64,000 bases of DNA from Shigella phage sb1: sequence record PQ666539, one strand, 5' to 3'. Shown piece by piece: positions 1,473 through 2,386 of this stretch. Numbering within the stretch: the stretch's first letter is position 1; each line of letters opens with the position of its first letter. A program made the position numbers and the translations under genes. The notes under the pieces are model-generated. The model worked only from the letters and a program-made list of their open reading frames with translations, had not been told where the DNA came from and did no database searches.

Positions 1473-1802
1473 TCAATTAGAAAATAAATTTATCCAAGAT
1501 TGTTCTTTAATTAAAAATGGCTCAGAATCATATGCCATCAAACTTTGGGTGATTAGTCCTTTAAAAGGCCCATCAATAAATTCCATGGTAAAATATGGAA
1601 TTTTATTCATTAGTCGTGCATTAGGAGCAGTGCACAAAACTCTGCATCCTTTGAATACGCCTTTTTGTAATTTGTATTGCTTAGGATAAAATTCGCTCAA
1701 GACGTTATTATTTGCCAAAATTTCAAAATGCTTCACCAACTTATTTTTAATAGTTTTTGGTGAAAAATAAAGATATTCGAAAAGATGTGTGTCTGTCATC
1801 AT
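1473..1802 (-). CDS. hypothetical protein
   Basis: ORF track 1473..1853; probable start at ATGATGA overlap with stop of upstream P-loop gene. Confidence 0.4.
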   Translation of the reverse strand: MMTDTHLFEYLYFSPKTIKNKLVKHFEILANNNVLSEFYPKQYKLQKGVFKGCRVLCTAPNARLMNKIPYFTMEFIDGPFKGLITQSLMAYDSEPFLIKEQSWINLFSN

Positions 1803-2386
1803 TGCATTCCAATTACGAAAAACTGCTGACGAGTAATACCGACAATGCAGCATTTACTATTGCAGCAGTGTTGCACAGTTTCAATATGAATATCATAAAT
1901 TTTATCCATATCAGGAGATTTAACCGGCTCATCGATTATATACAAAATCCGCGAAAGCGATAAACCTCTGAACTTGCTACCTCTATTACCAACAAAACTA
2001 CGGACAGAATCAGTAAATAAGCGGAATCGAATATCATCGCTAGAATAACGAGAAAATTCTTTTTTAATGTGGTCCGCAGAAATTTTAGCGTAAGATGAAG
2101 TATTAGAAAGAACAATAACTGTTCCACCATCATACAACCAATTAGCAGCAAAGTTAGTCACAGCAATTGATTTACCGGATTGACGTCCACCATCTAGTCG
2201 AAGTGTGCAGTACTCTTTGAATAAATCTTCAAATGGTAGGATAAAATCACTATTACAAATTTCTTCTACTCTAGCATCAGAATGGTATGTAAAAGCATTC
2301 ATCAGGGATAGATAAGGACCAGTTAAAAATGTTCTCATTTTGTTATCTCTAAATTTGCGCCATTCCATGGCGCATGAATTTTCCAT
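1799..2386 (-). CDS. P-loop NTPase of unknown function
   Basis: Walker A GGRQSGKS and Walker B-like LYIIDE in 195-aa ORF. Confidence 0.5.
   Translation of the reverse strand: MENSCAMEWRKFRDNKMRTFLTGPYLSLMNAFTYHSDARVEEICNSDFILPFEDLFKEYCTLRLDGGRQSGKSIAVTNFAANWLYDGGTVIVLSNTSSYAKISADHIKKEFSRYSSDDIRFRLFTDSVRSFVGNRGSKFRGLSLSRILYIIDEPVKSPDMDKIYDIHIETVQHCCNSKCCIVGITRQQFFVIGMQ

Follow-up and report, generated by a model that had tools for sequence, protein, structure and literature searches.

In phage T4, the genes vs.8, vs.7, vs.6 (GrcA-like), vs.5, vs.4, vs.3 and regB follow denV in this reference order, and the first two of them, together with the RNA leader in front of them, are the subject of the present analysis in Shigella phage sb1 (sequence record PQ666539). 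The stretch of 64,000 nt that was analysed is referred to as the window; coordinates are those of the window, and all genes described below lie on its minus strand. One gene of the pair was recently added to the known triggers of Avs2 that are not terminases, and results on its leader, its start and its partner bear on that work. T4 vs.8 emerged from a screen in which AlphaFold 3 was run against EcAvs2, a sensor of terminase, and was described as an uncharacterised ATPase-like protein which is homologous to the T4 terminase ATPase and carries Walker A and B motifs (Nature Communications, August 2026; PMC13601566). Co-expression of T4 vs.8 with EcAvs2 was toxic, and AlphaFold 3 placed the protein in the terminase-binding pocket of EcAvs2 with a bridging ATP. 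For the authors of that study, it is terminase rather than vs.8 that Avs2 has evolved to detect; at the same time, they consider further work necessary to clarify what vs.8 does during infection, and they suggest an anti-defence function of such activators as a possibility (PMC13601566). Gene identities and the similarity of vs.8 to the large terminase subunit (TerL) are, hence, already published. The other described system of relevance is SroH of Escherichia coli, a small RNA (sRNA) of unknown function (PMC5389530, PMC6172242).

In the reading favoured here, to which we assign somewhat better than even chances, vs.8 and vs.7 represent an early look-alike of the TerL ATPase and its coupled partner, engaged in the immunity contest between phage and host and located behind an SroH-like RNA. 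This SroH-like leader seems to be a new, previously undescribed element. The features concerned are the following:

1799-2338, minus strand: vs.8, 179 aa plus stop, with the probable true start (1799-2386, 195 aa, in a preliminary description of the window)
1473-1802, minus strand: vs.7, 109 aa plus stop
1799-1802, minus strand: stop/start overlap ATGA of vs.8 and vs.7, read from the sequence
2339-2386, minus strand: 16-codon N-terminal extension MENSCAMEWRKFRDNK of the longer vs.8 reading frame, most likely a non-coding 3' part of the leader
2356-2477, minus strand: structured leader RNA, SroH-like, recognised by comparative conservation and covariation

Vs.8, its start codon and its partner Vs.7

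The preliminary description, made from the sequence letters and a list of open reading frames (ORFs), had reported an ORF at 1799..2386 (-) with the motifs GGRQSGKS and LYIIDEP next to a 109-aa ORF at 1473..1802. Both ORFs were confirmed, and the motifs proved to be conserved. By sequence comparison, the P-loop ORF is the orthologue of T4 vs.8: it shares 83% identity with T4 Vs.8 (NP_049732) over the 195-aa ORF and 88% over the 179-aa core (tblastn), and it matches PHROG 1488 ('unknown function') with an E-value of 1e-74 over profile positions 2-177 of 177. The earlier statement that no family could be recognised is correct for curated families but does not extend to PHROG 1488 and to the orthology with T4 vs.8. 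In Pfam, only sub-threshold matches to AAA_14 (0.022) and Terminase_6N (0.16) were obtained, neither NCBIfam nor PADLOC gave a match above threshold, and the best hit of a PDB sequence search (E about 0.07) was not useful. Of the checks which had been proposed, comparison with profiles and with T4 ORFs yielded the orthology of vs.8 and vs.7, whereas Pfam remained below threshold; thymidine kinase, the assignment which had been named as contrary to the proposal, was not found, the ORF being vs.8. Several GenBank records call vs.7 or vs.8 'endoribonuclease' or 'large terminase subunit', labels which apparently stem from automatic transfer.

Walker A (GGRQSGKS), Walker B with the adjoining glutamate (LYIIDEP, IIDEP) and the C-terminus FFVIGMQ of Vs.8 are conserved. 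Among 18 homologues down to 40% identity, the residues D-G-G-R-Q-S-G-K, R113, R124-G125, E137 and the C-terminal F..G.Q are invariant and D136 is nearly so, and most of 33 representatives of the family retain the motifs. Since they are invariant across divergent homologues, the P-loop motifs are not a product of chance. The family as such is small, with only 50 clusters recovered when 1.84 billion representative proteins were searched with a profile; its members are stand-alone proteins of 66-259 aa, most of them about 130-190 aa long. Using tblastn, vs.8 was detected in 1009 and vs.7 in 929 phage records, and the ratio of nonsynonymous to synonymous substitution rates (dN/dS) amounts to 0.12-0.16 for vs.8 and 0.08-0.28 for vs.7; both genes are under purifying selection. 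In a distant subgroup of the Vs.8 family (P0065, P0067, P0069, P0075), Walker A reads G-H-[ST] in place of G-K-[ST] and the Walker B Asp-Glu is lost, while the R-Q/R-R and RG motifs are retained. Judging from these residues, the subgroup is possibly catalytically inactive.

A relation of Vs.8 to TerL emerges from profile comparisons. PHROG 2 (TerL) matches the Vs.8 of the window with an E-value of 1.3e-5, and 17 of the 33 family representatives match it, the best of them at 3.9e-8; sub-threshold matches to Terminase_6N are found in 14 of the 33 (best 1.4e-4). When a profile of the 33 representatives was aligned by hhalign with gp17 of the window, the gene of which lies at about 33880-35712, a probability of 86% and an E-value of 5e-6 resulted. 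In this alignment, Vs.8 residues 34-144 are placed on gp17 residues 144-263, and the match stops at residue 263 of 610. GGRQSGKS is thereby aligned with LSRQLGKT, LYIIDE with MIYIDE, IIDEP with YIDEC and the RG motif with VRG. Both hallmarks looked for, a terminase-type Walker A (x-R-Q-x-G-K-T/S) and an hhhhD strand with a catalytic-type Glu, are present in Vs.8, and its fold together with the motifs RQxGK[ST], RG and hhhhDE corresponds to the terminase/helicase type of ASCE (additional strand, catalytic glutamate) ATPases. The protein ends about 40 residues past Walker B, all family members found are shorter than 260 aa, and Vs.8 contains neither a lid/subdomain II nor a C-terminal RNase-H-like nuclease domain. 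On sequence grounds, Vs.8 is best described as a truncated, free-standing homologue of the ATPase core found in the N-terminal part of gp17, and neither as a terminase nor as a kinase. The former proposal of a 'kinase or ATPase' has, hence, retained its second half, a P-loop NTPase of the ASCE/terminase type, while motifs and fold speak against the first.

The start of the ORF at 2386, as given in the preliminary description, could not be upheld. The 16 additional residues are unconserved and have no counterpart in T4 Vs.8, although the underlying DNA is conserved; T4 Vs.8 itself is annotated with 219 aa (NC_000866 64253-64912) and carries a different extension of 40 residues. In contrast, the PHROG 1488 profile and most homologues begin at MRTFLTG/MKxLT, which corresponds to M17 at position 2338, and a few carry short, unrelated extensions. 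Among relatives, the DNA of the extension is highly conserved yet contains indels of 1, 5 and 12 nt. Since the DNA of region 2339-2386 is conserved while the protein is not, and since these indels are not divisible by three, the region is taken to be non-coding; it comprises a hairpin with a GGA loop and the ribosome-binding region of vs.8. The gene, therefore, probably starts at 2338 and encodes 179 aa. In T4, the conserved protein begins 40 codons after the annotated start, and the 219-aa annotation extends across the SroH-like RNA. Any construct or structure prediction based on the long form of Vs.8 would carry an artefactual N-terminus, because the 219-aa and the 195-aa forms both read through the structured RNA.

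The small ORF is, again by sequence comparison, the orthologue of T4 vs.7. It shows 96% identity to T4 Vs.7 (NP_049731) and matches PHROG 2049 ('unknown function') with an E-value of 1e-53, and the source database tags its relatives PF26834. Searches with Vs.7 itself gave no match in Pfam, NCBIfam, PADLOC or PDB sequences, and the protein is without detectable relatives outside T4-like phages. A homologue search with vs.7 returned mostly truncated or frameshifted fragments, and the resulting alignment was too shallow. As the preliminary description had already noticed, the stop of vs.8 (TGA, 1799-1801) overlaps the ATG of vs.7 (1800-1802) within ATGATGA. A vs.7 homologue directly follows vs.8 in four further genera, with the following overlaps in the annotated genomes:

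Mosigvirus, RB69: vs.8/vs.7 overlap of 4 nt
Jiaodavirus, Klebsiella phage 15882-3-5: overlap of 4 nt
Karamvirus, Enterobacter phage KMB20: overlap of 4 nt
Tegunavirus, Yersinia phage TG1: overlap of 1 nt

In Jiaodavirus and Karamvirus, Vs.7 is 30-36% identical to the copy of the window, and the TG1 candidate, with a pairwise identity of 17%, is recognised by the vs.7 hidden Markov model (HMM) with an E-value of 7e-28. In an HMM scan, vs.8 followed by vs.7 was found in every examined T4-like locus that extends far enough. The two-gene module which had been suspected earlier was thereby corroborated, order and overlap being kept in five genera, and a conserved vs.8-vs.7 module, with a probable translational coupling of the two genes, is well supported by sequence comparison. 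Two candidate identities of the partner were tried and rejected: Vs.7 shows no similarity to gp16, as would be expected for a small-terminase analogue, and none to any part of gp17, as would be expected for the missing remainder of a split TerL ATPase.

The leader upstream of vs.8 and its relation to SroH

In all T4-like genera examined, a leader of about 120 nt (2356-2477, -, in the window) lies directly upstream of vs.8. Across genera, the DNA between the upstream gene and the vs.8 start is better conserved than the adjacent coding sequence: among Tequatrovirus, Mosigvirus and Jiaodavirus, identity is 90-95% in leader blocks such as CCAACCTGTAATAAGGTCGAGCCCAAGTGCGGTAATGGG, whereas the Vs.8 proteins of these genera are only 38-65% identical and synonymous divergence (dS) is saturated. 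The leader can be divided into the following elements:

2473-2477 with 2439-2443, minus strand: long-range helix Pa, with covariation
2446-2463, minus strand: hairpin P0, enclosed by Pa
2398-2438, minus strand: core with P1, P2, P3 and an invariant GGUAA
2436-2438 with 2398-2400, minus strand: P1, closing the core
2421-2434, minus strand: hairpin P2 in the core
2408-2417, minus strand: mini-helix P3 in the core
2356-2374, minus strand: conserved 3' hairpin with GGA loop

Two base pairs of P1 are formed in each of 26 distinct sequences (CG19/GC5/AU2 and CG18/GC6/GU1/UA1), and the covariation score of this helix lies above all 500 shuffles and all slid controls. In P2, ACCU/AGGU becomes ACCA/UGGU in Pseudomonas phages, and in Pa all five pairs covary in T4-like genera, with GC10/AU5/CG5 at one of them. 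As the z-score of the minimum free energy of the whole leader is only -1.6, the evidence for its structure is comparative and not thermodynamic. For the core, RNAalifold gives a different pairing (18-22 with 40-44), which is broken by two sequences in which P2 is compensated; this pairing could be an alternative conformer. Based on these comparisons, the leader is regarded as a covarying structured RNA and not as coding sequence.

The 40-nt core is also present in unrelated phages, namely in rV5 (Vequintavirus), Pseudomonas phage KIL5, a 44-kb coliphage and several IMG/VR contigs of 44-148 kb, and an HMM scan of these loci revealed no vs.8 or vs.7. In six of ten non-T4-like loci, the motif is located at most about 0.7 kb from a tRNA gene cluster on the same strand. 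In Karamvirus, two tandem copies of the core precede vs.8 (L005 2757-2931; L030 9039-9171), and the annotated vs.8 coding sequence (CDS) of KMB20 (254 aa) spans both of them. Two GGA motifs between the core and the vs.8 start are kept across T4-like genera (2379-2390 and 2356-2374, -), one of them as AUGGA(C/A/U) and the other in the hairpin loop GCCAnGGAAUGGC; in spacing and context they presumably resemble CsrA-type binding sites. The 3' hairpin at 2356-2374 has no sense-strand U-tract. A promoter/terminator scan returned 10 sites compared to 11.6 expected from shuffles, none of them in the leader on the sense strand.

Database searches did not directly connect the leader to a known RNA. The Rfam 15 family sroH (RF00372) matched the phage leader with 12.6 bits (E 0.87) and, thus, far from its gathering score of 80, and no riboswitch, ribozyme, tRNA-like or Y-RNA family of Rfam 15 was matched. 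By eye, none of the hammerhead, twister, pistol, tRNA anticodon-arm mimic or ZTP/pfl motifs fits. BLAST of the leader against E. coli genomes gave no match, nor did a strict motif pattern in 185,579 bacterial genomes; a relaxed pattern yielded 46 loci as compared to roughly 35 expected by chance (hand estimate), and most of the 46 are chance occurrences. A covariance model (CM R1) was built from 26 phage sequences only, the window copy included. Within the 64-kb window it gives a single match at 2387-2449 (-) with 72 bits (E 2.7e-20), the window copy being a training sequence. For T4, the model returns 67 bits at NC_000866 64848-64910, a position covered by the annotated CDS of Vs.8, and further copies were located in other loci (L007 2493-2555; L009 2498-2560; L010 2486-2548). 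Applied to the loci of the relaxed pattern, the model returned 37.3 bits (E 1.5e-8) for E. coli, Shigella and E. albertii, 38.3 bits for Lonepinella and 35.7 bits for a Haemophilus-type sequence (E 1e-8 to 5e-8 across the sroH/Pasteurellaceae loci), while all other loci reached at most 21.7 bits, though the 3' string is common to them by construction. The E. coli locus found in this way lies in the intergenic region between thiH and yjaZ and corresponds to the sroH gene.

The bacterial copies display compensatory changes as well: P3 is formed by GGC...CCGG for GCC...GCGG and P1 by CGC/GCG or CAU/AUG, whereas Pa is GGAUG/CAUCC or GAGUG/CACUC as compared to, for example, GGGAA/UUCCC in phages, and the length of P2 varies. 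Going by this agreement, the phage leader is related to SroH in its core and its domain architecture. The SroH-like RNAs of Pasteurellaceae (Lonepinella and Haemophilus-type; L056 6957-7219 (-), L060 197-459 (-) and L072 7703-7965 (+)) exhibit the same domain order, with a terminator and then a conserved GUUAUUUUGAGG; the Rfam sroH entry appears to be limited to enterobacteria. With the RNA also accompanying tRNA clusters in phages of the rV5 and Pseudomonas KIL types and in others, a broad comparative set and a consensus structure become available for the orphan sRNA SroH, and a widespread phage non-coding RNA is added to the catalogue.

Proposed role and competing explanations

As a look-alike of the TerL ATPase, Vs.8 would bind and probably hydrolyse ATP, as far as its motifs allow such a prediction. 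Because vs.8 is part of what we take to be an early/middle gene block of T4, the protein would be made before the late terminase. It could then act as a terminase-ATPase look-alike against host immunity, e.g. by engaging TerL-recognising factors, with Vs.7 being made in a fixed ratio to Vs.8 as its partner or modulator. The leader might serve as a processed small RNA or as a regulator of vs.8-vs.7(-vs.6) expression. A more far-reaching version, which we consider rather improbable, combines the SroH-like RNA, Vs.8 and Vs.7 into one fixed counter-defence or host-takeover unit of T4-like phages, the RNA of which is also carried by unrelated virulent phages. In such a unit, the RNA would exploit or imitate the SroH pathway of the host or would control translation of vs.8-vs.7, e.g. 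via the GGA sites, while Vs.8-Vs.7 would weaken or redirect the immunity that senses terminase, ahead of the appearance of the real terminase.

Several observations count against the look-alike reading. The Terminase_6N (PF03237) match of Vs.8 scores 12 bits at a gathering cut-off of 22, and a fold search cannot tell terminase from the RecA domains of superfamily 2 (SF2) helicases. The AlphaFold2 model of Vs.8 is moderate, with a predicted local distance difference test (pLDDT) score of 77, and lacks two strands, the one preceding the P-loop and the C-terminal one; that of Vs.7, two N-terminal helices followed by four strands, is unreliable (pLDDT 54). Catalysis is not universal in the wider Vs.8 family, since its distant members lack the Walker A Lys and the DE of Walker B, and because the RNA occurs elsewhere without the gene pair, its functional tie to vs.8/vs.7 is only syntenic. 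Moreover, activation of EcAvs2, the sole functional datum, harms the phage.

The main rival, to which we concede a real if minor chance, regards Vs.8 and Vs.7 as a small oligomeric ATPase with a nucleic-acid substrate of its own, for which the adjoining RNA, tRNA or mRNA are candidates; Vs.8 would then be neither a decoy nor a trigger of immunity, recognition by Avs2 would be incidental, and the Avs2 effect would go back to TerL ancestry. An enzyme of this kind would be in line with the strict conservation of the Walker A Lys, the Walker B Asp-Glu and two Arg as well as with the abundance of functions related to RNA in the gene block (regB, vs, and the SroH-like RNA, which elsewhere is seen in tRNA clusters), and with the view of PMC13601566 that terminase is what Avs2 evolved to target. 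Vs.8, however, with a single RecA-like domain but no second lobe, arginine-finger partner or nucleic-acid-binding domain, is a minimal scaffold for such a task, no nucleic-acid-binding motif was detected in Vs.8 or Vs.7 by Pfam, NCBIfam, PADLOC and PDB searches, and the RNA is found without vs.8/vs.7 in other phages. Acting on nucleosides, nucleotides or polynucleotides, a P-loop kinase would likewise possess a Walker A motif and a small size, and the T4 region also holds tk and nudE. This explanation is very improbable nonetheless, as no kinase family of Pfam or NCBIfam is matched and as three features are of the ASCE/terminase type, namely the Glu directly after the Walker B Asp, the RQxGK P-loop and the RG motif.

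Least credible of all is the view that neither gene has a function, vs.8 having arisen by duplication of the 5' part of gene 17 and being in decay, and vs.7 being a chance ORF. While the truncated architecture, the lack of a curated family and the nonsense codons in several window genes could be cited for decay, both ORFs have stayed intact in the window as well as in about 1000 phage genomes from at least five genera, dN/dS is 0.08-0.28, the motifs are invariant, and C-terminus and overlap are conserved; owing to this conservation and to dN/dS, decay is effectively refuted. A further objection concerns the block upstream of vs.8, which might not be an RNA but the true N-terminus of a longer Vs.8 or a DNA site such as a promoter or a recombination site. 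The 219-aa RefSeq CDS of T4 covers the block, annotators called ORFs there in KMB20 and EcoPhCCP1, and 'the promoter of vs.8' is mentioned for this area (PMC13243611). This alternative is quite improbable, though, in view of 1-, 5- and 12-nt indels which break the frame while the nucleotides stay 80-95% identical, of unrelated amino-acid sequences in the extensions and of three helices that are kept paired by compensatory changes. In addition, the motif is intergenic beside tRNA genes in unrelated phages and has a transcribed sRNA, SroH, as its counterpart in E. coli, and promoter-like sites show no excess (10 vs 11.6 expected) and are absent from the leader. An early TerL-ATPase look-alike with a coupled partner, thus, remains the preferred reading. 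As vs.7 accompanies vs.8 throughout the T4-like loci examined, the pair merits joint study, for instance with respect to Vs.7 masking or modifying the recognition by Avs2.

Neighbouring genes and comparison with known systems

The phage of the window is a Tequatrovirus; megablast of region 1000-3500 matched 896 phage records, nearly all of them T4-like, with a top identity of 96%. Around the gene pair and its leader, the following genes are found:

3452-3946, minus strand: lysozyme gene e, first in transcription order
3072-3392, minus strand: denV, interrupted by TGA at codon 107
2493-2966, minus strand: internal head protein gene (DUF7412 / PHROG 3155), between denV and the leader
1104-1466, minus strand: vs.6, GrcA-like autonomous glycyl-radical cofactor (Pfam Gly_radical E 2e-18; T4 annotation)

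The synteny denV/internal protein gene - vs.8 - vs.7 - vs.6 is common to the window and T4. The tk/denV neighbourhood assumed in the preliminary description applies with regard to denV, the internal protein gene and vs.6-vs.3, but tk lies outside the window, being located further downstream in T4. The stop of vs.7 and the start of vs.6 are 6 nt apart (read from the sequence), and because of this short gap vs.6 probably belongs to the same transcription unit as vs.7. Downstream of vs.6 (about 346-1104, -), vs.5, vs.4 and vs.3 follow. T4 vs.4 is described as an anti-defence protein which sequesters the signal of the cyclic oligonucleotide-based antiphage signalling system (CBASS). T4 vs.3 was reported in a 2026 paper to be the anti-Thoeris sponge TadIV-1 (anti-Thoeris-IV), so that the vs block holds at least one known counter-defence gene (PMC13243611).

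The internal head protein gene at 2493-2966 (DUF7412) begins with the capsid-targeting start MKTYQEF. In T4, ipII and ipIII are positioned upstream of denV, and denV directly precedes the leader; the internal-protein cassette is, thus, rearranged here relative to T4. In-frame stops occur in denV (TGA at codon 107, 3074), gene 17 (TGA at 34975 and TAA at 35461) and gene 18 (TAA at 36125). After each of them the frame runs on normally, and the genes, which include those of the essential terminase and the tail sheath, are otherwise well conserved; this suggests sequencing errors or a damaged or defective genome. Both vs.8 and vs.7 as well as the leader are intact in the window.

Compared with T4, the Vs.8 of the window has the same motifs, the same C-terminus, the same downstream genes vs.7 and vs.6 and the same upstream leader. 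T4 Vs.8 is annotated with 219 aa as compared to 195 aa for the longest ORF here, the extensions being unrelated and the conserved protein comprising 179 aa. Unlike in T4, an internal-protein gene lies between denV and the leader. T4 Vs.7 overlaps vs.8 in the same manner and displays no notable difference from the Vs.7 of the window.

With the TerL ATPase (subdomain I of gp17), Vs.8 has a common ASCE core from before Walker A to past Walker B, including the Arg-Gln P-loop, hhhhDE and an RG motif that precedes the strand of Walker B. In contrast to TerL, only about 135 residues can be aligned, an adenine-binding Q motif is not evident in Vs.8, and a region for binding of portal or small terminase subunit (TerS) is absent; furthermore, vs.8 resides in an early/accessory region, whereas the TerL gene is part of the late packaging operon. 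SroH and the phage RNA share the core P1 - ACC..GGU hairpin - GGUC(R)AG-SC-NNAGU-SCGGUAA-N-G - P1' and a 5' domain in which Pa encloses P0. The phage copy, however, has no Rho-independent terminator but runs via the GGA-loop hairpin into the ribosome-binding site of vs.8, and P2 is short in phages. Finally, the Avs2 activators Ksap1 and Ksap2 from Dhillonvirus and Stephanstirmvirinae are, like vs.8, small and lineage-restricted and resemble the terminase ATPase sheet (PMC13601566). According to the description given there, only vs.8 combines recognisable sequence homology to TerL with Walker motifs.

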